64,000 bases of DNA from positions 886 to 64,885 of the forward strand of contig JAFODP010000020.1 of NCBI GenBank assembly GCA_017380635.1, in the 5' to 3' direction. The notes beneath the pieces are model-generated. The model searched no databases, had not been told where the DNA came from, and was given only the letters and a program-made list of their open reading frames with translations. This DNA comes from Bacteroidales bacterium. Lineage in GTDB: Bacteria > Bacteroidota > Bacteroidia > Bacteroidales > UBA1402. Every line of letters starts with the position of its first letter. The stretch's first letter is position 1. Positions 48,749-64,000 of this stretch are shown piece by piece. A program made the translations under genes and the position numbers.

Positions 48749-48751
48749 AGT

Positions 48752-49732: not shown

Positions 49733-49734
49733 AA

Positions 49735-50817
49735 TCATTCTTCGTTGTTTAAATCGCGAGCTGCGGTATAGTTTCTCCATTTCTGGAGCAATAATTCAAA
49801 ATCGTTGGGTGTTTCGGAAGTGAAGAACATCTTTTCGTGCGTGCGCGGATGTTCGAAACCTAAAGTCTTGGCATGCAAAGCTTGACGCGGACAAACGGCA
49901 AAACAATTTTCCACAAACTGTTTGTATTTGGCAAAACGTGTGCCCTTCAGGATTTCGTTGCCGCCATAACGTGCATCGTTGAAAAGCGGATGGCCAAGAT
50001 GCTGCATGTGAACGCGAATCTGATGCGTTCTGCCCGTCTCCAGACGACATTCCACCAAAGTGACATAACCGAAACGTTCCAATACGCGGTAGTTGGTGAC
50101 GGCGTGTTTGCTGCCTTCGTCGCCATCGGGATAGACGCACATCTGCAGACGGTCGCGCTTGCTTCTACCAATGGGAATATCCACGCGGCCTTCGTTCTCT
50201 TCGAAATTGCCCCACACCAAAGCATGATAACAGCGTTCGGTGGTTTTGTTGAAAAACTGTGCGCCCAAAAAGGCCTTGGCTTCCGGATTCTTGGCAATCA
50301 CCAGCAAACCCGAAGTGTCCTTATCGATGCGATGCACCAAACCCGGGCGCGGATCGTCCGAAGGAAACTGCGGATCGTCCTTGAAATGCCACACCAATCC
50401 ATTCACCAGCGTGCCTGTGAAATTGCCATGACCGGGATGCACCACCATGCCGGCGGGTTTGTTCACCACCATCAGGTCGCAGTCTTCGTACACAATGTCG
50501 AGCGGAATATTTTCGGGAATAACTTCGGTGTCGTTGGGCTGATAGTTCACCATCACGCGGATATCGTCGCCGGGCTTGACGCGATAATTCGATTTGACGG
50601 CATTGCCATTGACGATAATCATGCCACTATCGGCAGCATCCTGAATACGGCTACGCGACACATTGGCAATATGTGCCACCAGAAATTTATCGATACGCAA
50701 CAAAGTTTGTCCGGGATCGGCCACGAAATGCCATTGTTCGTAAAGTTCGCGGCTTTCGTAGAAATCTTCCTCCAGATTCTCTTCCTGCGACAATGAAATG
50801 TCCTTGTAATCGGTCAT
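49735..50817 (-). CDS. rluD: RluA-family 23S rRNA pseudouridine synthase (RluD-like)
   Basis: S4 domain followed by HRIDKDTSGLLV, which contains the catalytic Asp. Confidence 0.85.
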   Translation of the reverse strand: MTDYKDISLSQEENLEEDFYESRELYEQWHFVADPGQTLLRIDKFLVAHIANVSRSRIQDAADSGMIIVNGNAVKSNYRVKPGDDIRVMVNYQPNDTEVIPENIPLDIVYEDCDLMVVNKPAGMVVHPGHGNFTGTLVNGLVWHFKDDPQFPSDDPRPGLVHRIDKDTSGLLVIAKNPEAKAFLGAQFFNKTTERCYHALVWGNFEENEGRVDIPIGRSKRDRLQMCVYPDGDEGSKHAVTNYRVLERFGYVTLVECRLETGRTHQIRVHMQHLGHPLFNDARYGGNEILKGTRFAKYKQFVENCFAVCPRQALHAKTLGFEHPRTHEKMFFTSETPNDFELLLQKWRNYTAARDLNNEE

Positions 50818-50824
50818 GAGGCTA

Positions 50825-51634
50825 TCAGAAATCTATTTCGATGTCTTCTATCAGCAAACTGTCGGGCGAAAGCAACATGTCGGGATTTTTGCTCATCCAA
50901 ACGTTGACGCGCTTGCCCACGTTGTAATGCATGTGCGGCGCGGGGTCTTGCATGTAGACGAAATATTTGTTGGCGTCGCGTTTGTTGTCGGGTTCCACGT
51001 CGTAATAGATGTCGCCGATGTTGACGCTGCTTTCGTGTGCGATGATGATGGCCGAGTCGAGCGATTTGCCGATAAGTTCGGGGATGGCAATTTTTTCGCT
51101 GCCGGCGCCTTGTCCCACAATCAGGTCGAGGGCGGTGCCTACTGGCAGACTAGCGCCATTGCTGACGCTGAGGCCTTCGTGTTGTACATCAATCACCAAA
51201 TCGCGGTATTCCGAAGGCGCGAAACGCACATCGGCAATCTTGAAACCTAAAGCTTGCAAAGTGGCAATGGCTTGACGCTGAGAGAAGTCCTTCACGTTGG
51301 GCACCATCATGTATTTTTCTTCCTGTGAATTGATGGTGAGATAAATGATGCGATTTTCCTTCACTTTCGAGCCTGCCGAAGGTCGTTGTTCCAGCACCAC
51401 ACCGGCCGGATGATTGGCGTTGCGGATAGAATCGATGATTTCGAAGCGCAGGGCATTGTTCTTCAAACTGAGTGCGGCCTCTTCCAAATGTTGCAACGTG
51501 ACGTCGGGAACACGCAGGGCTTTGTCGTGACGGGTATAGGCTTTCAGCCAGATATTCAGTGCGATAAATAGTATAACGATGGTCAAAACAAAGACCACCA
51601 ACTGAAACATTGTCTTTTTAATTCCGGGTTTCAT
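50825..51634 (-). CDS. PASTA-domain protein
   Basis: N-terminal TM segment followed by three PASTA-like repeats (VPDVTLQHLEEA.., VPNVKDFSQRQA.., IPELIGKSLDSA..). Confidence 0.7.
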   Translation of the reverse strand: MKPGIKKTMFQLVVFVLTIVILFIALNIWLKAYTRHDKALRVPDVTLQHLEEAALSLKNNALRFEIIDSIRNANHPAGVVLEQRPSAGSKVKENRIIYLTINSQEEKYMMVPNVKDFSQRQAIATLQALGFKIADVRFAPSEYRDLVIDVQHEGLSVSNGASLPVGTALDLIVGQGAGSEKIAIPELIGKSLDSAIIIAHESSVNIGDIYYDVEPDNKRDANKYFVYMQDPAPHMHYNVGKRVNVWMSKNPDMLLSPDSLLIEDIEIDF

Positions 51635-51687
51635 ATTTTGATTATATGAGTAGCTTGCAAAGGTAACATTTTTCTTGAGTTGAAAGC

Positions 51688-51720
51688 AAAAAAAAAGTAA
51701 AGACGCGGGGCCTTTACTTT
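51688..51720 (-). terminator. rho-independent terminator of rpmH
   Basis: Minus strand: aaagtaaag-gccccgcgt-ctttacttt followed by a T8 run. Confidence 0.75.
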
Positions 51721-51755
51721 TAGAAGATGACGTTCGAACTCAATCGAACATAAAA

Positions 51756-51914
51756 TTAACCTTTCAGACGTTCTTCGTCAGATACGGTCAATTTCTTTCT
51801 GCCGTGAGCACGACGGCTTGCCAATACGCGACGACCGTTAGCGGTAGCCATTCTGGCGCGAAAACCATGTTTGTTGGCTCTCTTTCTGTTCGAGGGTTGG
51901 AATGTTCTTTTCAT
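51756..51914 (-). CDS. rpmH: 50S ribosomal protein L34
   Basis: Hand translation gives [52 protein letters not shown]. Missing from the ORF track because it is under 60 aa. Confidence 0.95.
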
Positions 51915-51969
51915 AACGTTCTATATTACTTGTTTTTATTTCTAATTTTCGTCTTGTTTTTAGCGGACG

Positions 51970-51977
51970 CAAAAGTA
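51970..51977 (-). promoter_or_regulatory. -7 promoter box TActTTTG upstream of rpmH
   Basis: The reverse complement of caaaagta is TACTTTTG, 56 nt upstream of the ATG. Confidence 0.35.
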
Positions 51978-52101
51978 CTGAATATTTTTGAATTGACAAA
52001 TGCTTGCTATAATTTTTTTAAAAATTTGCTGATGTGGAAGATTTGAGCGATATTTGCAGCCGCAAAAAATTAATATTCATTTAATTAGAAAAAATATTTT
52101 T

Positions 52102-52665
52102 ATGGCTACTACCGCTGATTTTAAGAATGGTATGTGCATCGACTTGGACGGTGCGTATTATTTTATTGTTGAATTTTTGCACGTTAAGCCCGGTAAAGGT
52201 GCTGCTTTCGTTCGTACGAAACTGAAAAATGTGCAGACCGGCCGCGTGTTGGAAAAGACCTTCAACTCGGGTGTGAAAGTGGACGAAGTACGTATCGAAC
52301 GTCGTCCTTATCAGTTCCTTTATCAGGACGATATGGGTTACAACTTTATGCATGCTGAAACCTACGAACAGATTGTTATTGCCAAGGATCTTATCAACGG
52401 TGTTGATTTCTTGAAAGATGGCGATATGTGCGAAGTGGTTACCCACGCTGAATCTGAAACCGTTCTTTATGCCGATGTTCCTACTCACGTAGTTTTGGAA
52501 ATCACTTACACCGAACCTGGTTTGCGTGGTGATACGGCTACCAACACCTTGAAGCCTGCAACCGTTGAAACTGGTGCTACCGTTCGTGTTCCTTTGTTTA
52601 TCGAAGTGGGCGAAAAGATCAAGGTAGATACCCGCGATGGTTCATACGTAGAACGCGTTCGCTAA
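52102..52665 (+). CDS. efp: elongation factor P
   Basis: [54 protein letters not shown]. Start set at the internal Met. Confidence 0.95.
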
Positions 52666-52687
52666 TCAATAGTTTTGCAAAGAAACG

Positions 52688-52721
52688 AAAAGCCTGTCGG
52701 CCTGTGCCGATGGGCTTTTTT
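52688..52721 (+). terminator. efp terminator
   Basis: aaaagcctgtcgg-cctgtg-ccgatgggctttttt, an imperfect stem plus a T-run. Confidence 0.6.
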
Positions 52722-52760
52722 CGTTGGTGAAGACTGGGGTTTTAGGTTGGTGGAAAGAGT

Positions 52761-52789
52761 GCGAGCCGGGCCCGACGGGCCCGGCTCGC
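52761..52789. terminator. GC-rich 12-bp perfect hairpin between convergent genes
   Basis: gcgagccgggcc-cgacg-ggcccggctcgc. It resembles the hairpin at 23044-23068. Confidence 0.4.
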
Positions 52790-52823
52790 ATCGTCATCAT
52801 CGTGTTTTTCAATCTGTTAAAAG

Positions 52824-53300
52824 TTAATAGTTGATTAGGTATTTTTTGTCAGAAGTTTCAATAAGTGCCAATCGCTCTTTGTTGCAGCAGAACAATCGAA
52901 GCTTGCCTTCTTCGGGATGAACGAAAATGCCCCAATAGCCCAAAGTGCCCCCGCTCCCATGACGACGTCGGCATTTGTTGAGGAAATGCTTATCCACTTG
53001 TTCCAGGCGGACAATGTCGTGCTTGTCAATCAGACTGCGGCCAATCAATCGTTTCAGTGCGATATAATCGTCGTCCACGATTAAGCCGACAGGCGTCATA
53101 CTGAAGCAGAAGACGAGAACCGGGATCAAGATGAATATTCCGACGATGTCTTCGCGATGGTGTATCACCTCGATAATCAAAATGACAAGGCAGGTGAGTA
53201 AGATAAGGCAGAAAAAGCTATTGAGTATCCATGCTTTTTTGTCCCATCTGTAACGGCAGGAGTTGATGTCGGAAATCTTGAGTGAGGGTTGTTTATTCAT
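52824..53300 (-). CDS. membrane protein with C-terminal bacterial PH (bPH)-like domain
   Basis: Start set at MNKQPS. Two TM helices followed by DDYIALKRLIGRSLIDKHDIVRLEQV...GSGGTLGYWGIF, a bPH-like pattern. Confidence 0.5.
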   Translation of the reverse strand: MNKQPSLKISDINSCRYRWDKKAWILNSFFCLILLTCLVILIIEVIHHREDIVGIFILIPVLVFCFSMTPVGLIVDDDYIALKRLIGRSLIDKHDIVRLEQVDKHFLNKCRRRHGSGGTLGYWGIFVHPEEGKLRLFCCNKERLALIETSDKKYLINY

Positions 53301-53466
53301 CTTTCTTGTTCTTTTGTCTGCTTGCGCGACGCAAAGCATCTGCAATGATCCACTGGAGTTGTCCGTTGACGCTACGAAATTCGTCGGCGGCCCATTTCTC
53401 CAGGGCGTTCATGGTGTCGGTGTCGATGCGCAGGATGAAGCTTTTGGTGTCTTTTTTTTCGGCCAT
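53293..53466 (-). CDS. Arc/MetJ-type ribbon-helix-helix DNA-binding protein (57 aa, not in the ORF track)
   Basis: Hand translation gives MAEKKDTKSFILRIDTDTMNALEKWAADEFRSVNGQLQWIIADALRRASRQKNKKDE, an RHH beta-strand followed by two helices. Its last 8 nt (ATGAATAA) overlap the start of the next gene. Confidence 0.6.
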   Translation of the reverse strand: MAEKKDTKSFILRIDTDTMNALEKWAADEFRSVNGQLQWIIADALRRASRQKNKKDE

Positions 53467-53478
53467 GACAACCGCTTT

Positions 53479-54441
53479 TTAGTTGTACAAAGTGCCGGTA
53501 TTTACCACAGGCTGCGCTTGTTCGTCGGCGCAAAGCACCACCATCAGATTGCTCACCATGGCGGCTTTCTTGTCGTCGTCGAGCGTTACGATTTCTTCTT
53601 CAGAGAGTTTGTCGAGCGCCATCTTCACCATCGAAACAGCACCTTCCACAATCTTTTCGCGAGCCGAAATAACGGCCGAGGCCTGCTGACGACGCAACAT
53701 CACGGCGGCGATTTCGGGTGCGTAAGCCAAATAATTGATGCGGGCTTCCACTACTTCGATGCCGGCCATGGCCAAGCGTTCGTTCAAAGTGTTTTCGAGG
53801 ATTTCGTTGATTTCTTCGCCACCGCTACGCAAAGTTAGTTCGTTGGCGTCGCCTTCGTTGTTGTCGTAGTTGTAATGCGTAGCCACCTGACGCAGAGCGG
53901 CATCCGACTGAATCTTCACATAATTTTCAAAAGCTTTCATGATGGACGATACCGTGGTCGTGCCGGTGGCGGCGCTTGTGGCCATGGTCTGCGAGTCGAT
54001 TTCGAACATCGATTTATAGGTGTCTTTCAGTTTCCAGGTGAGCACCAAACCAACCATAATCGGGTTGCCGGCTTTGTCGTTTACCTTGATGGGCTCTACG
54101 TCCAAATTGCGCGCACGCATCGACAGTTTCTTCTTGGCAAAGAAGGGGTTAACCCAATAAAAACCGGTTTTGGTGAAAGTGCCTTGGTATTTACCGAAAA
54201 ATACCAGTACGCGAGCCTGGTTTGGTTCCAGTTCCATGTAGCCTATCATGCTGATAATCCAGAAGATACCGATCAGAACGATGATCGTTGCCGCCAATCC
54301 TATACCGATAATTCCCTTGCTTGCGGCCAGGGCCAATCCTACCACCAATGCAGGCATCACCACAATGTGTCCGAGCAGCATCCAAAATCCGCTCATGCTG
54401 AATCCTTGGAAATCCTTTTCCTGTTGAATCATTTCTTTCAT
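53479..54441 (-). CDS. SPFH/band-7 domain membrane protein
   Basis: N-terminal TM helices followed by ARVLVFFGKYQGTFTKTGFYWVNPFFAKKKLSMRARNLDVEPIKVNDKAGNPI, typical of an SPFH core. Confidence 0.75.
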   Translation of the reverse strand: MKEMIQQEKDFQGFSMSGFWMLLGHIVVMPALVVGLALAASKGIIGIGLAATIIVLIGIFWIISMIGYMELEPNQARVLVFFGKYQGTFTKTGFYWVNPFFAKKKLSMRARNLDVEPIKVNDKAGNPIMVGLVLTWKLKDTYKSMFEIDSQTMATSAATGTTTVSSIMKAFENYVKIQSDAALRQVATHYNYDNNEGDANELTLRSGGEEINEILENTLNERLAMAGIEVVEARINYLAYAPEIAAVMLRRQQASAVISAREKIVEGAVSMVKMALDKLSEEEIVTLDDDKKAAMVSNLMVVLCADEQAQPVVNTGTLYN

Positions 54442-54506
54442 AGTCTCTACAAATTAAAAGGTTGAATAAATAATAATTGATTTAGATTTGATTGATTGTA
54501 TATATT

Positions 54507-54550
54507 GATTTTTTTGTTCGTTCGTGATGATTTTTTTGTTCGTTCGTAAT
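54507..54550. repeat. 2 x 22-bp tandem repeat upstream of the SPFH operon
   Basis: gatttttttgttcgttcgtgat / gatttttttgttcgttcgtaat (21/22 identical), 66-110 nt upstream of the ATG at 54441 on the minus strand. Confidence 0.85.
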
Positions 54551-54641
54551 GATATCAAAATGATATCGCAAAGATATTTCGTCTTTTTGAAACGCGCAAG
54601 ATTTTTGCGAAATTTTTAAGTAAAGTCTATTTTGACAGAAA

Positions 54642-54875
54642 ACAGAATGCGGCTCGGCAGAAGACAGGATGCGGCTCGGCATAAAAATCAAGCAAGCTCG
54701 TTTTTCTGCTCTCGCCTTTCACTATCTTTATAGAAGACAGGATGCGGCTCGGCATAAAAATCAAGCAAACTTGTTTTTCTGCTCTCGCCTTTACTATCTT
54801 TATAGAAGACAGGATGCGGCTCGGCATAAAAATCAAGCAAGCTTGTTTTTCTGCTCTCGCCTTTCACTATCTTTG
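54642..54875 (+). repeat. 3 x 72-73-bp tandem repeat plus a 19-bp partial seed
   Basis: Units at 54659-54731, 54732-54803 and 54804-54875 (agaagacaggatgcggctcggcataaaaatcaagcaag.t.gtttttctgctctcgcctttcactatcttt). The units differ by 2 substitutions and one 1-nt indel. The partial copy acagaatgcggctcggcag lies at 54642-54660. Confidence 0.95.
54868..54875 (+). promoter_or_regulatory. -7 promoter box TAtcTTTG at the end of repeat unit 3
   Basis: A perfect TAnnTTTG 27 nt upstream of the ATG at 54903. Units 1 and 2 carry TAtcTTTA at the same position. Confidence 0.5.
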
Positions 54876-54902
54876 CAAAAACTTCTGAAACACTGATATG
54901 GT

Positions 54903-55094
54903 ATGATGACCCCGAAACAACAAACTTTGTATGCGCTGATGGAATGTGAGGGCTACAGCTACGGTTGTATGCAAATGGTAATGAGCTTGTTGGGCGCTTC
55001 GCGCGAGGCACTCGACGACATGATACTTTTCATCGGAGACGAGCATCCATCCGAACGCGAACTGATTGCAAAATTGGCCGAACTTTGCGAATGA
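54903..55094 (+). CDS. small hypothetical protein (63 aa)
   Basis: An ORF with a promoter box directly upstream. No recognisable domain. Confidence 0.4.
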   Translation: MMTPKQQTLYALMECEGYSYGCMQMVMSLLGASREALDDMILFIGDEHPSERELIAKLAELCE

Positions 55095-55298
55095 TTACGT
55101 TTTGCAGAATGATGGTAGCGCAAATATTCGCTGTCTATTTTTGAAGGTGATGAGATGAGTGAGAATTTAATTTGCTGAAAGATCAATTACCGAAGGCGGA
55201 TTTGATAGATTGTCATAATTTAGATTAAGGGAGAGGCTGTGCTTAAATGAAAATTTGGCGCAGCTTCTTCCTTTGTTAATACATGTAAATTAAATGTA

Positions 55299-55547
55299 AT
55301 GCTTATGGCAACAGTAAAAGTGAAATTTCGTCCATCAAAAGTGGAAGGCAAAAAAGGTGTGATTTATTATCAGATTATTCATCGTCGTAAAACGGTACAT
55401 ATTTCTACCAAATATCGAATCTACTCTCAAGATTGGGATGAAGAGACGTTGGCTATCTTTCCTCATTCCAGGGCATTTTCCGCTTTGCAACATCGTGTGG
55501 ATGCAGAGTTTGATGGAAAGTGTATTAAAGAATTTTACCATATTTAA
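55299..55547 (+). pseudogene. 5' remnant of a Bacteroidales tyrosine integrase (Arm DNA-binding domain only)
   Basis: MATVKVKFRPSKVEGKKGVIYYQIIHRRKTVHISTKYRIYSQDWDEE is the typical integrase N-terminus. The ORF stops after 82 aa, whereas full-length integrases are about 400 aa. Confidence 0.7.
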
Positions 55548-55604
55548 GATATTTTATCGTATATTGCGGACCAATTAGAGAGATTTATGATTCTGTAAGA
55601 AATA

Positions 55605-56171
55605 ATGACTGACCAACAAATAATAGCGGCATTGGTGGAGCGAGATGAGAAAGTTACTCGGCAATTCTTTTTTAAGGATTGTCGTCCGCTTTTTGCTAGT
55701 ATCATTCGTCATGTGTTTACGTACAAGGTGGATTACGATGAGTTTGTGAATGAATTCTATCTTTATTTGATGGAAAACGAAGCTCATCGTCTGCGTCAAT
55801 TCCAGGGAAGAAGTTCTATCTATCAGTGGATGAAGGTGGTAGCTATTCGTTATTTTGTAGCTAAAAGGGATTCAATGATAGATATGGAACCTCGGGAACC
55901 TCTTTCCAATGAACCTGAAGCATCCTATGATAAATCGGGTGCCATATCAGCTGCTATCGATGTACGACGTTTGCTTGGCATGATGCCGAACAAGCGCCAT
56001 GTGTATGTTTTGCAGCGATTGCTCTTGGACGATGCGGAACCTAAAGAAGTGGCAGAAGAGTTGCAAGTGACAGTAGATAATTTGTATAACATAAAGAAAA
56101 GGGCTATGGCTGCGCTGACACAAATGGTGCTTTTCGAAACTGGGAAATATGAAAAAGAAATCTGTAAATAA
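55605..56171 (+). CDS. sigma-70 family (ECF-like) RNA polymerase sigma factor
   Basis: A region 2-like segment (EFYLYLMENEAHRLRQFQGRSSIYQWMKVVAIRYF) and a region 4 helix-turn-helix (EPKEVAEELQVTVDNLYNIKKRAMAAL). Confidence 0.7.
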   Translation: MTDQQIIAALVERDEKVTRQFFFKDCRPLFASIIRHVFTYKVDYDEFVNEFYLYLMENEAHRLRQFQGRSSIYQWMKVVAIRYFVAKRDSMIDMEPREPLSNEPEASYDKSGAISAAIDVRRLLGMMPNKRHVYVLQRLLLDDAEPKEVAEELQVTVDNLYNIKKRAMAALTQMVLFETGKYEKEICK

Positions 56172-57150
56172 GATCTCGTCGGAGGTATTGGCGGCTTTTC
56201 TCGATGGAAACGCCACTGCACAAGAAAGCCTGGAGATAATGTGCGAAATCTCTGAAGATGCTTCATTGAGAGAGTTGCTGCATATTTCTCAATTGGTAGA
56301 TGCGGAATTGGGTATCATGCCTCAAGTGGATTGTGAGCTTCTTCCCATGACGGCCATGGCTGCTACGTGCAGCGAAGAGAATCTCTGTAGTTTGGAATGC
56401 GAAAAATTTGTGCTAAGAAAGATGGGTATAGATTTCGACGAACAACAACTCTACGCTGAGGCGCTTCGCTGTGGATGGCAAAAAAAAGAAGGCACGGCTT
56501 TATACAATGTGGGACGCCATTTGGAAGCTAAAGGTCTTGTGGTGACTCGCCAATTTAAAGCGAGGATTGACGATATTGCAAATGCGCTCAAGAAAAATGA
56601 GAGCGTAATAGTTGCGCTTGATGGTGGAGAATTGTTGAATGCCGGATTGTCCGAAATCAGAGAAGACCTTATTGTAGGACAGATTCCCGACCATACGGTA
56701 GTTGTTACATCGTACGATGCTACCGCGCAAAAAATATGCGTATTCGATCCCAATTCTCCGGACGCGGAAGATACCTATCCTTTAGCTCAATTTCTGGATG
56801 CGTGGAGCGATTCTAAAAATTATTTGTTGCGTGTTGTTTCACCCGATACATGTGAATATATTCCACATCCTATCGATTTGTCTGATGTGGTTCTCACCGA
56901 AGATTTGATCGAATTGCGTGAAGCTATCGCCGAAAACGCTCACGAAGTTTGGGCGCAGAATCGTTATGCCGAAGGTTGGCGTTATGGTCCTCAAAGAGAT
57001 GACGATAAATTGCTTCATCCAGATATGATGCCCTATTCCCAACTTCCCGAAGGCGAAAAGGACTACGACCGCGAAATGGCTATGAAGACCATAAAACTTT
57101 TGAAGAAGCTCGGGTATGATCTTGTGAAACGTAAAAATAACAAACAATAG
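56149..57150 (+). CDS. anti-sigma-like N-terminus plus papain/C39-like peptidase-like domain plus C-terminal RyR domain
   Basis: LAAFLDGNATAQES is an anti-sigma-style N-terminus. A Cys...His module (CSLECEKFVL ... DHTVVVTSYD) is a tentative call. The C-terminus IAENAHEVWAQNRYAEGWRYGPQRDDDKLLHPDMMPYSQLPEGEKDYDREMAMKTIKLLKKLGY is a strong RyR-domain match. 23-nt overlap with the sigma gene. Confidence 0.6.
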   Translation: MKKKSVNKISSEVLAAFLDGNATAQESLEIMCEISEDASLRELLHISQLVDAELGIMPQVDCELLPMTAMAATCSEENLCSLECEKFVLRKMGIDFDEQQLYAEALRCGWQKKEGTALYNVGRHLEAKGLVVTRQFKARIDDIANALKKNESVIVALDGGELLNAGLSEIREDLIVGQIPDHTVVVTSYDATAQKICVFDPNSPDAEDTYPLAQFLDAWSDSKNYLLRVVSPDTCEYIPHPIDLSDVVLTEDLIELREAIAENAHEVWAQNRYAEGWRYGPQRDDDKLLHPDMMPYSQLPEGEKDYDREMAMKTIKLLKKLGYDLVKRKNNKQ

Positions 57151-57169
57151 ATTTAAGTTGATTCAGAAT

Positions 57170-58051
57170 ATGATTAAACCTTCAGAATTTATTCATCCTG
57201 AGGACGCAGCAGCATTGCGTCAGTTGGAATCTATTCCGGGATTTCCGATGCTGGTGAAGAAAATTATGGCCATCGGACTTGAACAATTGCAGTATGGTAT
57301 GAATATGGCGACGTCTATCAGGTTGTCGCCCACACAATTGCCAAAATTGTACAACCATCTCCCGCCCATTTGTGAAAAACTTGGTATAGAAGAACCGGAA
57401 TTCTATCTTATGATGGATCCCAATCCAAATGCTTTTACTTTTGGTGATACCAAAATATTTATTGCTGTTACATCTGGCTTGGTGGAAATGATGAGCGACG
57501 AAGAATTAGACGCCGTCCTTGCCCACGAATGCGGTCATATCATGTGTCGTCACGTATTGTATCATAGTATAGCGCGATATATTTTGAGCGGTGTAGATGC
57601 TCTTGGTGTTTTGGGCACACTGACTACACCTATTAAATGGGCTGTCTTATATTGGTATCGCAAGAGTGAGCTTTCGTGCGATCGCTGTGCCAGTATAGTT
57701 GCTTCTCCCGAAGTGGTGGCATCCACAATGGCTCGTTTGGCTGGGGGACCGAAGTCGATTACTGCTCACCTTAATATGGAAGAGTGGGCCAAACAAGCCG
57801 ATAAGTACGATGAAATTTACAACGATGGTTTGTGGAACAAGGCTTTACAAATCTATGTAATCATGGAACAATCCCATCCATTCAGCGCTGTGCGTGTACG
57901 CGAAATTCTGAAGTGGGGAAAGAGTGCTCAGTATCAACGTATCATGCAGGCTATGACCAAGGCCTTAGGTAGCAACGAATGTCCTAACTGTCATCGTTCA
58001 GTGTCATCTGATTGGGGATTCTGTAAATACTGTGGTCATAAACTGAAATAA
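57170..58051 (+). CDS. M48-family zinc metallopeptidase with C-terminal zinc ribbon
   Basis: HECGHIMCRH (HExxH) and a C-terminal CPNCHRSVSSDWGFCKYCGHKL. Start set at the ATG 12 nt inside the track ORF. Confidence 0.75.
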   Translation: MIKPSEFIHPEDAAALRQLESIPGFPMLVKKIMAIGLEQLQYGMNMATSIRLSPTQLPKLYNHLPPICEKLGIEEPEFYLMMDPNPNAFTFGDTKIFIAVTSGLVEMMSDEELDAVLAHECGHIMCRHVLYHSIARYILSGVDALGVLGTLTTPIKWAVLYWYRKSELSCDRCASIVASPEVVASTMARLAGGPKSITAHLNMEEWAKQADKYDEIYNDGLWNKALQIYVIMEQSHPFSAVRVREILKWGKSAQYQRIMQAMTKALGSNECPNCHRSVSSDWGFCKYCGHKLK

Positions 58052-58072
58052 TAAGCTATAAACTATTTGAAA

Positions 58073-58330
58073 ATGAAAGATTTATTCGACGAAAATGGAT
58101 TGTTGAACATCGATATTCTGATGGAACAAACTCCGTCATGGAAGTCTATCATAGCAGATGAGTTGGTGACAGATGAGGAGTTGAAGGAGCAATCTGAAAG
58201 AGTGATGCGCTTGGCAGAAAAACTTCAAGCCGCTTGTAATCAGGAGCAAATAGATTTGGTGAAGGCGTTTTTGGCTGAACTTAACGTGCTGAACATGGCT
58301 TATCATTACAATAGTGTAAAACCAATGTAA
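58073..58330 (+). CDS. small hypothetical helical protein
   Basis: An ORF tightly spaced within the cluster, with no recognisable domain. Confidence 0.4.
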   Translation: MKDLFDENGLLNIDILMEQTPSWKSIIADELVTDEELKEQSERVMRLAEKLQAACNQEQIDLVKAFLAELNVLNMAYHYNSVKPM

Positions 58331-58341
58331 AAGACATAGAT

Positions 58342-58869
58342 ATGGGAACTTTTAATACAAGTAAGATACTATATGTATCGCCTGCATATATTCCAGCCAT
58401 GGCCGAACGTTTGTGTAGAGACTTTCAAGCTGATGGGTACGATGTGGCTTCTGATAATTTGATGAGCGGTGGCATTGAGGTTTCCATCTCAAAAGGTGGT
58501 GTATTCAAATTGGCTTTGGGTATGAAAACCGCGCTGAAAATATCGTTGACACCTCGCGAAGAATCGGTCGTATTCGATGCCAGTGTCGGGATTTTTGGTA
58601 AGCAAATTATACCTGCATTATTGGCTTGGTATGTGGCATGGCCCGTGCTCTTGACGCAAGTATGGGGTTTGATAACCCAATCGAAGTTGGACGACAAGGC
58701 ACTTGCTATTGTTATGGATGTGGCTTCGTCTGGCGATATTTCCGTTGATGCCTCTACTTCTCCGATAGAGAAATCCGACACTACGGGTGAATATTGTTTC
58801 TGTACTCACTGTGGCCACAAAAATCTCATGACTGCAGATAAATGCTCCTCCTGTGGAAAAGACTTATAA
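58342..58869 (+). CDS. hypothetical protein with a TM segment and C-terminal zinc ribbon
   Basis: TM segment IIPALLAWYVAWPVLLTQVWGLI and a C-terminal CFCTHCGHKNLMTADKCSSCGKDL. Confidence 0.5.
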   Translation: MGTFNTSKILYVSPAYIPAMAERLCRDFQADGYDVASDNLMSGGIEVSISKGGVFKLALGMKTALKISLTPREESVVFDASVGIFGKQIIPALLAWYVAWPVLLTQVWGLITQSKLDDKALAIVMDVASSGDISVDASTSPIEKSDTTGEYCFCTHCGHKNLMTADKCSSCGKDL

Positions 58870-58962
58870 ACAATGATTAAAAGATGAATGAAGAGTTGTT
58901 TTTATTTATAAATAATAGAATAACATCTTTAGATATTGTTCTTAAACAATTTATTAAATTTT

Positions 58963-58995
58963 TTGATTAGTATATTTTCTTATACTAATTATCAA
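58963..58995. promoter_or_regulatory. inverted repeat (candidate operator) upstream of the SIR2-like/TIR gene
   Basis: ttgattagtata-ttttct-tatactaat(t)atcaa, ending 23 nt upstream of the ATG at 59018. Confidence 0.35.
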
Positions 58996-59017
58996 GTCTG
59001 TTGATATTTATATATGT

Positions 59018-60382
59018 ATGGCCAGTCATAATGAAATAAGCGAGCGTAATTGGGAGTTGTTACTTGAGGCAATCAATAATAAACGGGTTGTCCCTATTAT
59101 TGGTGACGATTTTTTCTATGTTATCGAAAATGAGCAAGAAATCAGTGTTAGAGAATTCTTAATTAAGAAACTTGCTTTAAGATTTAATGTAACAGATTCT
59201 TTTGTTGATTTTTCTTCTATCGCAGATGCGATAGAACTAGAAAATTTTATGAATCATAAAATACGTTTCATCAACTCCCAAACTGATATATATTATGAAA
59301 TCAATCAGATTCTCCAAACTGAAAAAATCTACGTAAGGGAATCATTGCATCAATTAATTGAGCTAAATAAATTTCCACTTATTCTTACAACCTCATTTAT
59401 TCCAGGTCTTGAAACTCTTTTATCTCAAAAGGGGCATGATTGTGTTTCACTATCATATGAGAAAGCTGCAGATTCAGACCTTACTCCTGCTGTAATGTGT
59501 GGAGATAAAACAATAATATACTACTTGTTTGGACGATGTGGAAAAATAAAAAGGTCATATATGGTAACAGAGGAAGATCTTCTTGAATATATACATTTAT
59601 GGCATGATACAGATGCAAGACCCCCTATACTTACAAAGCAATTAGCCAATAAATTTCTAATGGTTTTAGGTTGTAACTATCCAAATTGGTTATTTAAATT
59701 TTTCTGGCATTCTATTAGAAATTTTTCTTTAATTCCTAATTCTAATCATGGTGATAGAATTATGGAAATTATGCAAGCTATTGTTTCTGTCGATCAGGTG
59801 AAGGATGATGTTGACTTAGAAAGATTTCTGTCCAGAATACACACTTCCATATACAAAAGCAGTAATACGTTCATTCAAGAACTCATATGGCACTGGGGTA
59901 ATTATAAATCTAATATAGAAGAGATAAATCCTTTAGAAGAAAAAGAAGTATTCAACTCGAATGACGAATCAATAGATATATTTATTTCGTATGCAAGTGA
60001 AGATTTACCTATCGCCAATAGATTGGCTGATATGCTTAAGAATCTAGGCGCAAAAGTTTGGTTTGATAAACGTGAACTTGTTCTATCAGATAAATATGAA
60101 AGAGAAATTACTTCTGCTATAACAAAAGCCAAACGTTTTATGCCTGTACTTTCTAAAACAACGCTGATAGAGGAGCCTCGCTTTTTTAGAAAGGAGTGGG
60201 CAATCGCGCATCGTGTACTTGAGGACAGATTTGGATTACCATTTTTTGCTCCAATTACAATTGATGAATGTAACCCTAATGATGAACGTATTCCGAAGAC
60301 CTATCGAGATTGCCATATAATATCATTCCAAAGTGAAGACATTGAGTTGAAGTTGAAAAAGTTTATTAGATCAATTCGCTAA
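59018..60382 (+). CDS. SIR2-like (SIR2_2-type, catalytic residues substituted) domain fused to a C-terminal TIR domain
   Basis: Collinear with ThsA-type SIR2: VPIIGDDFF (GAGLS), LILTTSFIPGLE (TTNYD), IIYYLFGRCG..YMVTEEDLLEY (KMHGD...DDYEKY), FLMVLGCNYPNW (FVGFSFTDPN). TIR: IDIFISYASEDLPIANRLADMLKNLGAKVWFD...FFRKEWAIA. Confidence 0.75.
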   Translation: MASHNEISERNWELLLEAINNKRVVPIIGDDFFYVIENEQEISVREFLIKKLALRFNVTDSFVDFSSIADAIELENFMNHKIRFINSQTDIYYEINQILQTEKIYVRESLHQLIELNKFPLILTTSFIPGLETLLSQKGHDCVSLSYEKAADSDLTPAVMCGDKTIIYYLFGRCGKIKRSYMVTEEDLLEYIHLWHDTDARPPILTKQLANKFLMVLGCNYPNWLFKFFWHSIRNFSLIPNSNHGDRIMEIMQAIVSVDQVKDDVDLERFLSRIHTSIYKSSNTFIQELIWHWGNYKSNIEEINPLEEKEVFNSNDESIDIFISYASEDLPIANRLADMLKNLGAKVWFDKRELVLSDKYEREITSAITKAKRFMPVLSKTTLIEEPRFFRKEWAIAHRVLEDRFGLPFFAPITIDECNPNDERIPKTYRDCHIISFQSEDIELKLKKFIRSIR

Positions 60383-60386
60383 AAAG

Positions 60387-63300
60387 ATGCTGTTAAAAGA
60401 GAACAATCCCTGGTTAGGCTTAGAGTCATATTCAATCAATGATGCCTATAGATTTTATGGACGTGACAATGATATTGAGATTGTTAGTAATGCTATCTAT
60501 GATAATTTTATTACTACAATTTACGGTATATCGGGAGCAGGTAAAACATCTCTTCTTAATGCAGGTTTAACTCCTGCTTTAATTGAAAATAATTATCTGC
60601 CTATTAGGATACGCCTCAATCACAGTTCAGATAAGTCGTATAGCATGCAAGTTATTGATGCTATAACCGCTGCCGTAGATTCTGTTAATGGAGAAGTAGA
60701 ATATGATGGTACTATTTCTCTTGAACAGATTTGCGAAAATGAGAAACTTTGTTTTTTTTTGCATACTAGAGGTTTTTGGACAAAAGACAACTATTCCATC
60801 AGACCCGTAATCTTTATTGACCAATTTGAAGAGTTGTTTACACAGAACGATGATACATATAAGATATCTTCTTTCTTTGAAATGATAAATGCCATTCAAT
60901 ATGATACACCCCCTACTCAAACAAAGGAGCTGCTGGAAAACAGTTCGGGATATTTTGAGCTTAAATGCAATACTAGCAGAATAGTCTTTATCATAAGGGA
61001 AGATTTTCTTGCTCGTTTAGAAGATTATTCATACGGTATAGCAGTTTTAAGAAGAAATAGGATTGGTATAAAGCAAATGAATGGTCATCAGGCTTTAGAA
61101 GTTATTCTTAAACCCAGTCAAGGTCTCATTACACGAGAAGGCGCACTGAAGATTCTAAGCAAAGTTTCAGGTAAGGACGTAATTGATTCAGATCGTTCAT
61201 TAGGTAGGATTTCAATAGACACCTCAATTCTTTCGCTTTTTTGCTCTGAATTGTATCAAAGAGCTGTCGAAGAAAAAAGCGATATTATTACCACGAAGAT
61301 TATTGAGGAATTTGGCAGTAATATTATTGCTCACTTTTACTCAAAGAGTATGGCTCCAGTACCTCCTACTTTAGTAACATATTTAGAGAAACATCTATTA
61401 ACATCTAATGGCTATAGAAATTCTATCGCACTTGAAGATGTTGAGATACCCAAACTTACAAAAGAAGCACTTGCAAGTAATCTCACCCACCTCACAGAAA
61501 AACGTATTATAAGAATTGAAGAGACGAATGGAGTTGCACGTGTGGAATTTACTCATGATGTTTTATGCATGGTTGCTAAGCAACATAGAGATAATAAGAA
61601 ACAGAAGCAACTTAAGACGAAAGAACGAGCGGCCTCAATATTGCGATGTTTAGATTTTTCATTTATTCTATTGCTATGCTATATTTTCTTCTCTTCAGGT
61701 TCTGGGTGGTGGGGATATTATACAATTTCTTCACTTTTAAATCCAACCTCTATTGCAATAGGTTTTTTATTTGTATATACATTTTACGATAAATATAATA
61801 AACAAAACTGTCATTGGAAATTAATATCTTCTATATTTCTATCGCTTTTATTGGTTCCGCAAGATGTTTGGTTTAATTTTAATGATAGTGCTCTAAGACC
61901 AATTAATATTGCTACATTGATACTATGCTGTGCTTCAATTGTTATTAGTACATTTTCCTTTAACCCGTCCAAGCGTACGCAAAAAGGATTCTATTATCTT
62001 TTGCTAGCCACAAATTTCATGATGTTATTATTAAAATACCACATCTTTATAATTGGCTTATTAGCATTATTTTCATTCTTAATACTACTTCCATATAGAT
62101 TCACTTGTGAGAAAAAATCACGTATTTTATCAATAATAGCAACGGTATTACTATTGATATTGTATTTGGGATATGGTAGTGACTTAGGTTTATTTATTGC
62201 CATGTATCCACTTACAACCTTCTTCATAAAATTAAAAGATGGAAATTTATCATTAAAATCAGCACTTATATCTTGCCTAAAATTTGAAGTATATAATAAA
62301 AACAAAAGTCTTAGAGTGATACTTCTCATTGTTGGTATACTTTCTACATTTTCATATTGTTGGGCATATGGCAATTCATTAGCAGATAAAGAAATCATAG
62401 GGAGAATAATATCAGTTGTATTGATGTTTATTCTATTATTTAAATTTTGTCGTGAAATATCTACTAGTTTTAGAGAAATAACAGATCGCCATGATTGTTT
62501 GATACATAAAGGGGCATTAGGAATTTTGATTATTTCAACATGTATATTTTTATGCCAATATATACCATATGGAACCATCTTCATTTTATTTATTTGGTTT
62601 ATCATTTTGACTTCACTAATCGTTTTCGGGTCAAAATTAAGGATTGAAAATAAATGTCTATTTACTGCAATCATTATAGTTGTTATATCTTTAATTATTG
62701 CGCCATTGAATAGTATCGGATACAACATTTTCTCAAATATCAAATATGGTAAAACTCCTCAAAATATAATCCATGCCAATAGAGAATTTATCGTCATTAG
62801 AGATTTTCAAGGCAATTATGGTGTACGTGATAGATATAATATCATCGTACCTGTTAATTATTCCGAGATTCTGAGTGTTGAATTTTATAATATAGATGAT
62901 AATATAATAATTAGTAGAGGTTTAAGCTCATATAATTTAAATAACAATGTTAACGACAAATGGTTATATGTTTTTCCAACGTGGGTGCGTAGAATATTTA
63001 TCAATGGGCTTAACATAAGTAGTAAACAAAATGATATTGACAAAACACCCAATATTAGATTTTTATTAAAAAATAAAGACGGGGGTAATATAACATGGGA
63101 ATGCAATCAACATCTAAATATTCCAAATGTATGTACTTCTGTAATTAATCTATCATCGGAATCTTTATTTGTTGAAAATATATCAGGGGCATTAGATTAC
63201 TTCAAATCATTAGCAGAAGTAAAAGAGAATAATCCGATAATAGCAAAAAAAGTTATATTAAATTGTTTTAAGAAATATCTTTCTCAAGAATATCAATTTG

Positions 63301-63710
63301 ATTCTTTGCAAGAACTAGATGAGTTGTTAGAATCACAGAGTACTCTAACTCATAATACTGCAAATAATTTAAGATTGGCAATGAATAGGTCATATCAACT
63401 TTTACCATTTGTTGATGATACATCATTTGTTAAACTAACGTTGGATACATTGTGTCAATACACAAGACCGCAGAGCAATAAGTCATATGATATTTGGGAA
63501 CATTATAATAATATTTCTAGGTATTATTTATATGGAAAAATGTTTGATAAGGCAGAAGAATACGCAATAAAAGCTATTAAAACGGACTCGTTGTTAAAGC
63601 TCCCATATTTAAATATTATCGAGGCACACATAGCTAGAGGGAGGTATAGTGAAGCTGAGTTTTTATTTAACGAGTATAAAGATGATATGTTTTATCAAGG
63701 GAAAATATAG
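60387..63710 (+). CDS. STAND-type P-loop NTPase with an embedded polytopic membrane domain and C-terminal WG-like and TPR-like repeats
   Basis: NPWLGLESY..FYGRDNDIEIV...IYGISGAGKTSLLNAGLTPAL (Walker A) and RPVIFIDQFEELFT (Walker B) fit the STAND signature. About 12-14 hydrophobic helices span roughly aa 415-775. It ends at TAG 63708-63710, but the frame stays open beyond. Confidence 0.75.
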   Translation: MLLKENNPWLGLESYSINDAYRFYGRDNDIEIVSNAIYDNFITTIYGISGAGKTSLLNAGLTPALIENNYLPIRIRLNHSSDKSYSMQVIDAITAAVDSVNGEVEYDGTISLEQICENEKLCFFLHTRGFWTKDNYSIRPVIFIDQFEELFTQNDDTYKISSFFEMINAIQYDTPPTQTKELLENSSGYFELKCNTSRIVFIIREDFLARLEDYSYGIAVLRRNRIGIKQMNGHQALEVILKPSQGLITREGALKILSKVSGKDVIDSDRSLGRISIDTSILSLFCSELYQRAVEEKSDIITTKIIEEFGSNIIAHFYSKSMAPVPPTLVTYLEKHLLTSNGYRNSIALEDVEIPKLTKEALASNLTHLTEKRIIRIEETNGVARVEFTHDVLCMVAKQHRDNKKQKQLKTKERAASILRCLDFSFILLLCYIFFSSGSGWWGYYTISSLLNPTSIAIGFLFVYTFYDKYNKQNCHWKLISSIFLSLLLVPQDVWFNFNDSALRPINIATLILCCASIVISTFSFNPSKRTQKGFYYLLLATNFMMLLLKYHIFIIGLLALFSFLILLPYRFTCEKKSRILSIIATVLLLILYLGYGSDLGLFIAMYPLTTFFIKLKDGNLSLKSALISCLKFEVYNKNKSLRVILLIVGILSTFSYCWAYGNSLADKEIIGRIISVVLMFILLFKFCREISTSFREITDRHDCLIHKGALGILIISTCIFLCQYIPYGTIFILFIWFIILTSLIVFGSKLRIENKCLFTAIIIVVISLIIAPLNSIGYNIFSNIKYGKTPQNIIHANREFIVIRDFQGNYGVRDRYNIIVPVNYSEILSVEFYNIDDNIIISRGLSSYNLNNNVNDKWLYVFPTWVRRIFINGLNISSKQNDIDKTPNIRFLLKNKDGGNITWECNQHLNIPNVCTSVINLSSESLFVENISGALDYFKSLAEVKENNPIIAKKVILNCFKKYLSQEYQFDSLQELDELLESQSTLTHNTANNLRLAMNRSYQLLPFVDDTSFVKLTLDTLCQYTRPQSNKSYDIWEHYNNISRYYLYGKMFDKAEEYAIKAIKTDSLLKLPYLNIIEAHIARGRYSEAEFLFNEYKDDMFYQGKI

Positions 63711-64000
63711 AATGCAATTACAGAAGATGAGGAAAGAATTATATATGAGAACAACGATAGTGTTTCAATTCTATTAAGATACAATAGTCTTACAAATTCC
63801 TTAACTAGAGACATACCCATATTTGAGTCTTGCGGTTTGATAAATACGATTAATGCACCAGAATACATGGAACTCAAAAGAAAACTTTTACATAGGAAAT
63901 GTGCCATATATGATTCTGCAGAAGACAGAGGAGAGTATTATTTATGCAGGAAGTATGAAACATATATTGACGCAGAAGGAGAATTTTATAGAAATGCATA
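63711..64000 (+). other. in-frame open continuation of the 60387 ORF past its TAG stop (runs off the window)
   Basis: 96 consecutive sense codons in the same frame (NAITEDEERIIYENNDSVSILLRYNSL...GEYYLCRKYETYIDAEGEFYRNA). The first ATG in this frame is at 63867. Confidence 0.5.

Follow-up and report, generated by a model that had tools for sequence, protein, structure and literature searches.

The closest described counterparts of the locus reported here come from bacterial immune signalling and from phage counter-defence. Thoeris systems, of which types I-XI are distinguished, provide TIR-signalling defence with messengers of the cyclic ADP-ribose (cADPR) family (Yirmiya et al. 2025, 10.64898/2025.12.03.692087), and in the CalpL/CalpT/CalpS system of type III CRISPR a SAVED-Lon protease binds cyclic tetra-adenylate (cA4), upon which an anti-sigma factor is cleaved and a sigma factor of the extracytoplasmic function (ECF)-like type is released (10.1101/2024.05.08.593097; 10.1101/2025.07.01.662501). 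Phage proteins with a ryanodine receptor (RyR) domain bind 2'/3'cADPR and cADPR, with affinities in the nanomolar range, or degrade these molecules by cleavage (PMC13232231; 10.64898/2026.06.04.730250), all of this as given in the available sections of these reports. Here we describe a pair of genes found in a 64,000-nt stretch of DNA from a gut Bacteroidales bacterium (contig JAFODP010000020.1 of assembly GCA_017380635.1; the whole stretch is called the window below), which encode a predicted ECF-type sigma factor and a 333-aa protein that joins an anti-sigma-like segment, a C39-type peptidase domain and a RyR domain. TIR-type genes are strongly linked to this pair across genomes. As far as our searches show the pair is undescribed: full-text literature searches on the RyR domain together with anti-sigma, TIR or Thoeris returned no description of a sigma/anti-sigma-C39-RyR architecture, the available main text of the Thoeris survey (10.64898/2025.12.03.692087) makes no mention of RyR, C39, peptidase or transcription, and host-encoded RyR receivers are not discussed in the available sections of the two phage studies (PMC13232231; 10.64898/2026.06.04.730250). 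By analogy, it would represent messenger-gated immune signalling with a Thoeris-like input and a CalpLTS-like output.

The domains, conserved residues, predicted sigma binding and gene linkage of the pair were computed here. The first gene (55605..56171, + strand) encodes a protein of 188 aa, which according to profile and fold comparisons is a divergent ECF-type sigma factor. A family profile (A2, built from 48 members) covers residues 7-168 in its matches to AlgU, SigH/sigmaH and sigmaE, ECF sigma factors of solved structure (E-values of 2e-5 to 5e-4), and the AlphaFold2 (AF2) model (pLDDT 81) consists of two helical domains, with Foldseek returning only ECF sigma factors as top matches (E 2.5e-4 and above). 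The protein shows the two-domain architecture of ECF (group 4) sigma-70 factors, in which sigma-2 and sigma-4 span approximately residues 3-87 and 111-187, and lies below the curated thresholds: no Pfam family matches at E<=0.01, Sigma70_r2 and Sigma70_r4 included, and TIGR02937 (NCBIfam) scores 34.3 bits against a cut-off of 42.9.

The second gene (56149..57150, + strand) overlaps the first by 23 nt and encodes the soluble, three-part protein of 333 aa, for which an AF2 model built on a 48-sequence alignment has a pLDDT of 91.3 and a pTM of 0.83. Its sigma-binding segment (56167..56310, + strand; residues 7-54) is modelled as three helices (residues 11-18, 24-36 and 38-53). The N-terminal motif ISxELLAAYLDGNxT is conserved in the alignment of the C39-RyR proteins, and the motif LAAFLDGNATAQES is present in the translation. 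Prediction of a complex between the sigma factor and residues 1-70 gave an ipSAE of 0.85, compared with 0.02 for the best of three controls; at least 79% of the contacts agree between runs, the partner pLDDT is at least 71, and the score mark used is reached by 116 of 157 solved complexes and by 2 of 215 mismatched pairs. The predicted contacts involve sigma residues 28-85 and 115-180, i.e. both sigma-2 and sigma-4, and a clamp of this kind is typical of class I anti-sigma domains. In these models the N-terminus of the 333-aa protein behaves like a class I anti-sigma domain, and it is predicted to bind the cognate sigma factor.

The ECF sigma fold and the predicted clamp between sigma-2 and sigma-4 are shared with the sigmaE-RseA, sigmaW-RsiW and AlgU-MucA pairs, which are controlled by regulated intramembrane proteolysis. 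Unlike those anti-sigma factors, the 333-aa protein has no membrane segment, extracytoplasmic domain, zinc motif or Pfam anti-sigma match, and its putative protease is built in. Residues 1-70 give no Pfam match of the zf-HC2 or RskA type and contain no HxxxCxxC zinc motif, and no hydrophobic segment is found in the 333-aa protein (maximal Kyte-Doolittle mean over 19 residues 1.02, none reaching 1.6). By hydropathy the sigma factor, the 333-aa protein and the next two gene products of the cluster, an M48 protease and the small protein h87, are all soluble.

Residues 74-234 (56368..56850, + strand) are predicted to form a papain-like peptidase domain of C39 type (clan CA) with an intact Cys/His pair, Cys80 and His182. 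In VIA-align comparisons of this segment with C39-like peptidases the Z-scores range from 14.6 to 13.0, led by 3erv (Z 14.6, root-mean-square deviation (rmsd) 3.2, 155 residues aligned), 6mpz (14.3), PCAT1 8vp3 (14.1) and ComA 5xe8 (14.1), and the Pfam model Peptidase_C39_2 (PF13529) matches with 25.7 bits against a cut-off of 24. C80 and H182 are conserved in all 48 sequences and D200 in 40 of them. The papain-like fold (Z 14) and the Cys/His pair are those of the exporter domains PCAT1, ComA and LahT (8vp3, 5xe8, 6mpz), whereas the context here is cytoplasmic and regulatory: none of the recurrent neighbour families is an ABC transporter, and no substrate with a double-glycine leader was identified.

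The RyR/Repeat12-type nucleotide-binding domain follows at residues 236-328 (56854..57132, + strand). It matches Pfam RyR (PF02026) with an E-value of 4.5e-31 (107 bits, cut-off 27.4), and its profile matches the R12 domains of animal ryanodine receptors at about E 1e-80 and a Bacteroides thetaiotaomicron 'putative ryanodine receptor' (3nrt) at E 4e-46. Foldseek superposes the domain on 3nrt with a template modelling (TM) score of 0.93, an rmsd of 1.3 and 58% identity; over the three B. thetaiotaomicron structures (3nrt, 4n05, 6uag) the identity is 55-58% and the TM score 0.87-0.94. These are standalone proteins of about 100 aa that have no peptidase or sigma-binding part, in contrast to the 333-aa protein, and are of the same kind as the standalone 96-aa RyR proteins described below. 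RyR domains are dimeric in all solved cases.

The residues that contact the ligand in the phage proteins recur here. RyDEP uses H75, W78, H100 and D117, of which H75 and D117 form the catalytic (glycosidase) dyad, and these are described as conserved across PF02026 (PMC13232231), while the RyR Tad protein gp68 binds 3'cADPR (dissociation constant 43 nM), 2'cADPR and cADPR via H129/W132, H154 and D171 (10.64898/2026.06.04.730250), in both cases according to the available sections of the reports. In the 333-aa protein H265, W268, H290 and D307 occur at the same spacing (+3, +25, +42), the match being one of spacing and not of direct alignment, and the His-x-x-Trp, His and Asp of the two PF02026 phage proteins are all present in the window copy. 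H265, W268 and D307 are conserved in 48 of 48 sequences. The phage proteins are, in those accounts, viral counter-defence sponges or glycosidases, whereas here the host encodes the domain, in one chain with a peptidase and a sigma clamp; for this reason the 333-aa protein would be a receiver rather than an inhibitor.

A preliminary description of this DNA, made from the letters and a list of open reading frames (ORFs), had proposed five co-directional, tightly spaced genes with a 23-nt overlap, beginning with an ECF-like sigma factor and a protein with an anti-sigma-style N-terminus, a Cys/His papain- or C39-like module and a RyR domain. The arrangement is present in the ORF list, and the assignments agree with the results above: the sigma factor through profile and fold comparisons with solved ECF sigma factors and with no Pfam match, the N-terminus through the controlled complex prediction, and the other two modules through Pfam, profile and fold searches, with Cys80 and His182 invariant.

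Two observations on related proteins concern how the two genes are joined and annotated. A 438-aa single-chain protein (P0026/P0151; two near-identical sequences on seven contigs, the longest of 29,330 nt) fuses sigma directly to C39-RyR and lacks the anti-sigma helices, and this natural fusion ties the two genes together independently. The public gene call P0154 (242 aa, on a contig of 65,819 nt) corresponds to residues 92-333; it starts at an internal Met and omits the sigma-binding helices and the catalytic cysteine, Cys80, and therefore routine annotation hides the architecture.

To describe the neighbourhood of the pair we scanned one genome per species, which yielded 106 relatives, and kept the best 80 loci, all from Bacteroidota and with 37-71% identity to the 333-aa protein. 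The sigma gene adjoins the C39-RyR gene in 67 of these 80 loci by tblastn and in 69 by ORF clustering, and the start-stop distances between the two are mostly overlaps. The other genes of the window are found near the relatives much more rarely (M48 protease in 20 loci, zinc-ribbon protein in 16, h87 in 11, SIR2-TIR in 8 and STAND in 4), which identifies the pair as the conserved unit and the rest as cargo.

Clustering of the 923 ORFs from the 80 loci and the window, with representatives scanned against Pfam, shows what this cargo consists of. It is dominated by TIR-domain genes, treated below, and by further RyR-domain proteins, proteases (M48, PrsW) being another main kind. Channel-like membrane proteins of two families, with an RCK/Rossmann-like middle part and an RyR-like tail occur in 47 of the 80 loci, usually directly upstream of the sigma gene. 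In one of these families (c8) the C-terminus matches RyR with an hhalign probability of 97.7 (E 2e-12); in another (c2) the hhalign probability is 34 (E 4e-4) and the RyR model matches 7 of 35 members, so that this tail is termed RyR-like and is not proven. Standalone RyR proteins of 96 aa are present at the cargo ends in 20 loci. Other recurrent members are PrsW proteases (9 loci), NusG-like proteins encoded first in the gene string (9 loci), and TPR, WG-repeat, DUF1232 and MscS-like proteins, with M48 or PrsW proteases in 28 loci altogether; CRISPR genes are absent from the recurrent neighbour families. Genes in the islands are translationally coupled across module borders. In phage and plasmid collections no full-length relative of the 333-aa protein was found, only single domains, among them a C39 match on an Anabaena plasmid with no annotated sigma gene beside it. 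The sigma/C39-RyR pair forms the constant core of a Bacteroidales island that moves horizontally.

TIR genes were located in these islands with a hidden Markov model built from the island TIR families; among the matches listed, Pfam confirmed 20 of 25 singleton ORFs and left 3 unconfirmed. Of the 80 loci, 50 have one or more TIR ORFs within 6 kb (71 TIR ORFs, the window included), co-directional in 47 and Pfam-supported in 46, which bears out the suspected tie to defence-type TIR genes. In 21 of 72 loci a TIR gene is the immediate downstream neighbour of C39-RyR. A glutamate that we take to be the catalytic residue of TIR NADases is shared by 96% of the 71 ORFs, that of the window among them. 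The island TIR proteins are of several types: TIR followed by one membrane helix and then by a part of FGE-sulfatase, coiled-coil or RHS type, as well as TIR-MORN, TIR-WD40, Macro-TIR and TIR-STAND, and many have an outward-facing domain after a single membrane helix. In one locus (L043, 6989-8041) the gene that immediately follows C39-RyR encodes a Macro-TIR fusion (Macro E 2.9e-16, TIR_2 E 1.4e-17), i.e. an ADP-ribose-binding fold is joined to TIR. In the window the SIR2-like/TIR gene (59018..60382, + strand; 454 aa; Pfam TIR_2 E 1.3e-18, SIR2_2 E 1e-4) is followed after 4 nt by its partner, an nSTAND1 NTPase gene (60387..63710, + strand; Pfam nSTAND1 E 1.1e-28).

Genome-level counts point in the same direction. 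The source genome (2.34 Mb, 96.9% complete) has a single TIR_2 match and a single RyR match, and 1.9 kb separate the two, with TIR downstream. In an order-level sample of 121 genomes, not chosen by the 333-aa protein, RyR was found in 10, and in three of the nine other RyR-positive genomes TIR_2 is matched on the same strand no more than 4 kb away. Since these genomes hold 0-4 TIR matches in 2-5 Mb, chance adjacency is expected in less than 1% of cases per genome. A comparison is also offered by sigma and anti-sigma-C39 proteins of 214-247 aa that lack RyR: no TIR or RyR ORF lies within 6 kb of such C39 genes in any of the four loci fetched. In the three of these loci where sigma is present (L103 5389-6705, L105 5385-6705 and L106 5382-6702, with anti-sigma-C39 proteins of 234-247 aa) the RyR-less pair stands just downstream of an M16 peptidase gene in housekeeping-type surroundings.

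As TIR genes of immune type usually surround the pair, it may convert NAD-derived signals made by TIR proteins into a change of gene expression. We propose that the three N-terminal helices would clamp the sigma factor between sigma-2 and sigma-4, so that the 333-aa protein would be a dedicated cytoplasmic anti-sigma factor. A triggered island TIR protein would then convert NAD+ to an ADP-ribose-derived signal, this signal would bind the RyR domain, binding would switch on the adjacent peptidase or change the clamp, and the freed sigma factor would redirect RNA polymerase. We assign an even chance to the central sequence of events, which would run from a TIR signal bound by the RyR domain through a response of the peptidase to the release of sigma. 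What we infer in this scheme is the nature of the ligand, which way the signal runs, what the peptidase cuts, which genes sigma controls and any action against phages. Many island TIR proteins appear to place their variable parts outside the cytoplasm, and for that reason the trigger may be an envelope or extracellular cue and not a cytoplasmic phage component. More tentatively, and with the balance tilted against it, the islands could form a TIR-to-RyR second-messenger network of gut Bacteroidales, in which membrane TIR receptors and TIR/STAND sensors would make an ADP-ribose-derived signal that is read by RyR domains on anti-sigma/protease proteins, on channel-like proteins and on small RyR proteins that buffer or destroy it.

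The likeness of the proposed mechanism to CalpL/CalpT/CalpS, as the latter is described in the available reports, is one of logic only: a messenger-binding domain is joined to a protease that would act on an anti-sigma/ECF-sigma pair. Here the sensor is RyR and not SAVED, the peptidase is a C39-type cysteine peptidase and not Lon, and the signal is presumably ADP-ribose-derived and TIR-made, not cA4. The anti-sigma, protease and sensor parts are in one chain, in contrast to the separate proteins there, and no CRISPR context was seen. With Thoeris the locus shares a TIR gene linked to a partner with a small-molecule-binding domain, found in the window and in those 50 loci with a nearby TIR ORF; it differs in its variable, multi-gene islands, its many TIR proteins with a membrane helix and its would-be sigma output in place of a killing effector, and a role in defence is here a proposal. 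CapK/CapS (PMC13373217), in the available account, is likewise a conserved two-gene regulatory module beside changing immune-type cargo, but its families are unrelated and its input is DNA damage, and the pair described here usually lies inside an operon and not at its head.

Several observations weigh against the proposed mechanism. The complex score may partly reflect likeness, since sigma/anti-sigma complexes have already been solved, and no cleavage site for the peptidase was identified. No sigma-specific promoter or shared ECF-type motif was found: the upstream regions in 27 loci show only generic TAnnTTTG-like elements, which we take to be the Bacteroidetes housekeeping promoter, and a sigma-70-type scan of 54400-60500 gave 19 promoter-like sites, with 21.1 expected. 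The sigma gene lies mid-operon in most loci, with a gap of at most 11 nt to the upstream gene in most of the 70 loci listed. The phosphate-contacting H290 is His in 26 of the 48 sequences, Asn in 9 and Thr in 13. Contigs from RNA libraries cover 55656-57122, one of them bridging the sigma/C39-RyR junction (two runs of one study, word share 0.05), and are weak evidence of expression, because such libraries can contain DNA; moreover, they stem from relatives (90-99% alike) and from that single study. These contigs do not reach positions from 57147 onward, from which we conclude nothing. The window copy itself may be decaying, as the channel-like gene that usually precedes sigma in the relatives is absent at this locus and replaced by a recombinase remnant. 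As to the linkage, no TIR gene lies within 6 kb in 30 of the 80 loci, some of which are cut by contig ends, and among the nine other RyR-positive genomes of the order-level sample four have their TIR matches confined to other contigs (two of the four assemblies consist of about 640-650 contigs) and two have no TIR_2 match.

The loci and genomes devoid of TIR genes would also be expected if the RyR domain sensed the metabolic state. The ligand could be an ordinary adenine nucleotide, since R12 domains of ryanodine receptors also bind ATP and ADP (they have been solved with ATP, AMP-PCP and ADP; PDB titles 6uhh, 9l90, 9l9b), and the pair would then report energy or nucleotide stress, with the TIR genes as mere co-riders of mobile islands; the RyR-less sigma/C39 pairs in housekeeping-type contexts fit this explanation as well. 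Given 0-4 TIR genes per genome of 2-5 Mb, however, the TIR linkage is far above chance, three types of RyR-bearing protein gather with TIR genes in the same islands, and the residues kept in the domain are the contacts of two phage proteins for ligands derived from ADP-ribose (PMC13232231, in its available sections). We consider a metabolic sensor unlikely.

The domain might also destroy the signal rather than sense it, since the catalytic-type dyad H265/D307 is intact. The 333-aa protein would in this case hydrolyse or sequester TIR-made signals and silence the island TIR systems, as a host counterpart of ring nucleases, and sigma binding would only tie its level to expression. In favour of this, H265 and D307 are present in 48 of 48 sequences at the positions of the RyDEP glycosidase dyad (PMC13232231), 6 of 8 phage homologues bound signals without cleaving them (PMC13232231), and the standalone RyR proteins lie at cargo ends. 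It leaves unexplained, however, why the domain is fused to a sigma clamp and a peptidase with a conserved active site, and why a single-chain sigma-C39-RyR fusion exists, and for the 333-aa protein it appears unlikely. For the standalone RyR proteins a role in signal termination may well hold alongside the proposed sigma release by a TIR signal.

The cluster looks acquired, on account of a drop in GC content, a recombinase remnant with tandem repeats, a full-length 333-aa protein not found in genomes of the same family and its relatives in other families. Across the region the GC fraction falls from 0.49, first to 0.39-0.44 and finally to 0.28-0.35. Directly upstream of sigma, at the left edge of the cluster, lies a remnant of a tyrosine recombinase that retains only the arm DNA-binding domain (55299..55547, + strand; 82 aa; Arm-DNA-bind_5 E 1.1e-5). 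The full-length 333-aa protein was found in none of the 18 same-family genomes searched (completeness 70-99%), and its closest relatives, at 64-71% identity, belong to other families. These features, together with the variability of the cargo between loci, would also agree with a juxtaposition that serves no common function, in which three independent sets of cargo (sigma pair, M48 trio and TIR/STAND pair) have accumulated in one integration hot spot of a mobile island. This explanation is difficult to reconcile with the difference between RyR-less pairs, which have no TIR neighbours, and RyR-bearing pairs, which have them in the majority of loci, with the recurrence of RyR domains on three types of island protein, and with translational coupling across module borders, and it likewise seems improbable.

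Other features surround the cluster. In a related locus (L003, ~451-657) a 408-aa ORF with 42% identity to the recombinase remnant lies upstream of an equivalent cluster and is followed by a NusG-like gene. Between an SPFH gene and the cluster, tandem repeats occupy 54506-54874, including a 72-bp unit repeated 3.0 times (54659-54874, 96% matches) and two 22-bp repeats, and a 63-aa ORF with no family match (54903-55094) separates them from the remnant. The gap of 148 nt between the zinc-ribbon gene and the SIR2-like/TIR gene is AT-rich and holds an imperfect 38-bp tandem repeat in two copies (58929-59005), possibly a promoter or operator region. Past the STAND stop codon an open-ended ORF of more than 366 aa with WG-repeat-like and YD-repeat-like sequence (63837-64000, and L102 223-1320) runs to the contig end, which lies 2.1 kb beyond the STAND gene. 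No tRNA gene was found in 48000-64000 and no Rfam family matched in 52000-64000, the 54506-54874 repeats included. PADLOC (2023) returned nothing for the five genes of the cluster except a match of h87 to the CARF7 model (E 8e-4), which we take as chance, and for the neighbour families only matches at the level of TIR and TPR domains.

The remaining three of the five co-directional ORFs at 55605..58869 (+ strand), which are separated from the 333-aa gene and from each other by 7, 15 and 11 nt, form a cassette of their own. The first encodes a soluble M48-family zinc metalloprotease of 297 aa (57158..58051, + strand) with an HECGH motif and a C-terminal zinc ribbon; it matches Peptidase_M48 (PF01435) with an E-value of 2.6e-20 (73.5 bits, cut-off 20.3), with zinc-ribbon matches at residues 272-296. 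The features of an HtpX-type membrane M48 protease are lacking: no hydrophobic segment that could be a transmembrane helix was found in the protein, and the HtpX equivalog models reach at most 57 bits, against cut-offs of 245-422, over residues 48-150 only. The middle gene (58067..58330, + strand) encodes the small helical protein h87 of an unnamed family, for which no Pfam or NCBIfam match was found and the Atlas gives unnamed clusters only. The last gene (58342..58869, + strand) encodes a protein of 175 aa with an unnamed N-terminal domain and a zinc ribbon (Zn_Ribbon_1, residues 153-175, E 3.8e-6), whose Atlas relatives are unnamed zinc-ribbon proteins from several phyla. The M48 HExxH motif and the two zinc ribbons, CPNC..CKYCG in the M48 protein and CTHCG..CSSCG in the 175-aa protein, had been named in the preliminary description and are borne out by Pfam matches and by the translations. 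Its 85-aa helical protein is correct for a start at the ATG of residue 3, which is the form in the Atlas, and has 87 aa from the TTG start; its 'TM protein' does carry the zinc ribbon, although its only hydrophobic segment is a single marginal one (residues 89-107, Kyte-Doolittle 1.67). Of the 48 C39-RyR proteins, 16 (e.g. L007, L012, L014 and L029) carry an additional C-terminal zinc ribbon, some 50 aa long and similar to those that end the M48 and 175-aa proteins, and the ribbon may be a shared docking tag of the islands.

In 17 loci anchored on close relatives of the M48 protein the zinc-ribbon protein gene is adjacent in 15 and h87 follows M48 in 13, with a RyR ORF within 8 kb in 10, a TIR ORF in 11 and neither in 6. 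A TIR gene follows the zinc-ribbon gene within about 60 nt in five loci (L085, L091, L093, L096 and L098), and the order seen in the window, trio, SIR2-TIR and STAND, recurs in L096, L087 and L008. These counts, and the TIR genes that follow, mark the trio as a real cassette with a closer tie to TIR genes than it has to the sigma pair. It is a separate, tightly conserved and interchangeable module, often, not always, present in these islands, and our guess is that it would be a proteolytic effector or regulator of the TIR arm. The five-gene order is accordingly not conserved as a unit, and the conservation that the preliminary description had called for is found at the level of the sigma/C39-RyR pair. 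The same description had the switch gated by proteolysis; that the M48 zinc-ribbon protease would gate cleavage of the anti-sigma under envelope stress, with the freed sigma turning on the downstream TIR/STAND pair, is suggested by the tight packing of the five genes (gaps of 7-15 nt), by the presence of M48 or PrsW, the latter a site-1 protease of an anti-sigma in Bacillus, in more than a third of the loci, and by the trio preceding SIR2-TIR/STAND also in L008, L087 and L096, and we reject it as very improbable, as neither the anti-sigma nor the M48 protein has a membrane segment, M48 is absent from 60 of the 80 loci, the trio occurs with neither RyR nor TIR within 8 kb in 6 of 17 loci, and the anti-sigma has a conserved peptidase of its own.

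If the proposed release of sigma by a TIR-made signal is correct, the pair would provide the first transcriptional output for bacterial TIR signalling, the outputs described so far being killing or growth-arrest effectors, and ECF sigma control would be exerted by a diffusible messenger and a built-in protease, with no membrane anti-sigma. It would also establish host-encoded receivers with the RyR fold, whose binding of TIR signals has until now been demonstrated for phage counter-defence proteins alone. In the more tentative network scheme, the RyR-tailed, ion-channel-like proteins of the islands would be a bacterial counterpart of the animal cADPR/ryanodine-receptor axis. The pair is a compact two-gene system in which to ask whether RyR-type domains are physiological cADPR sensors, a question long debated for the animal ryanodine receptors.

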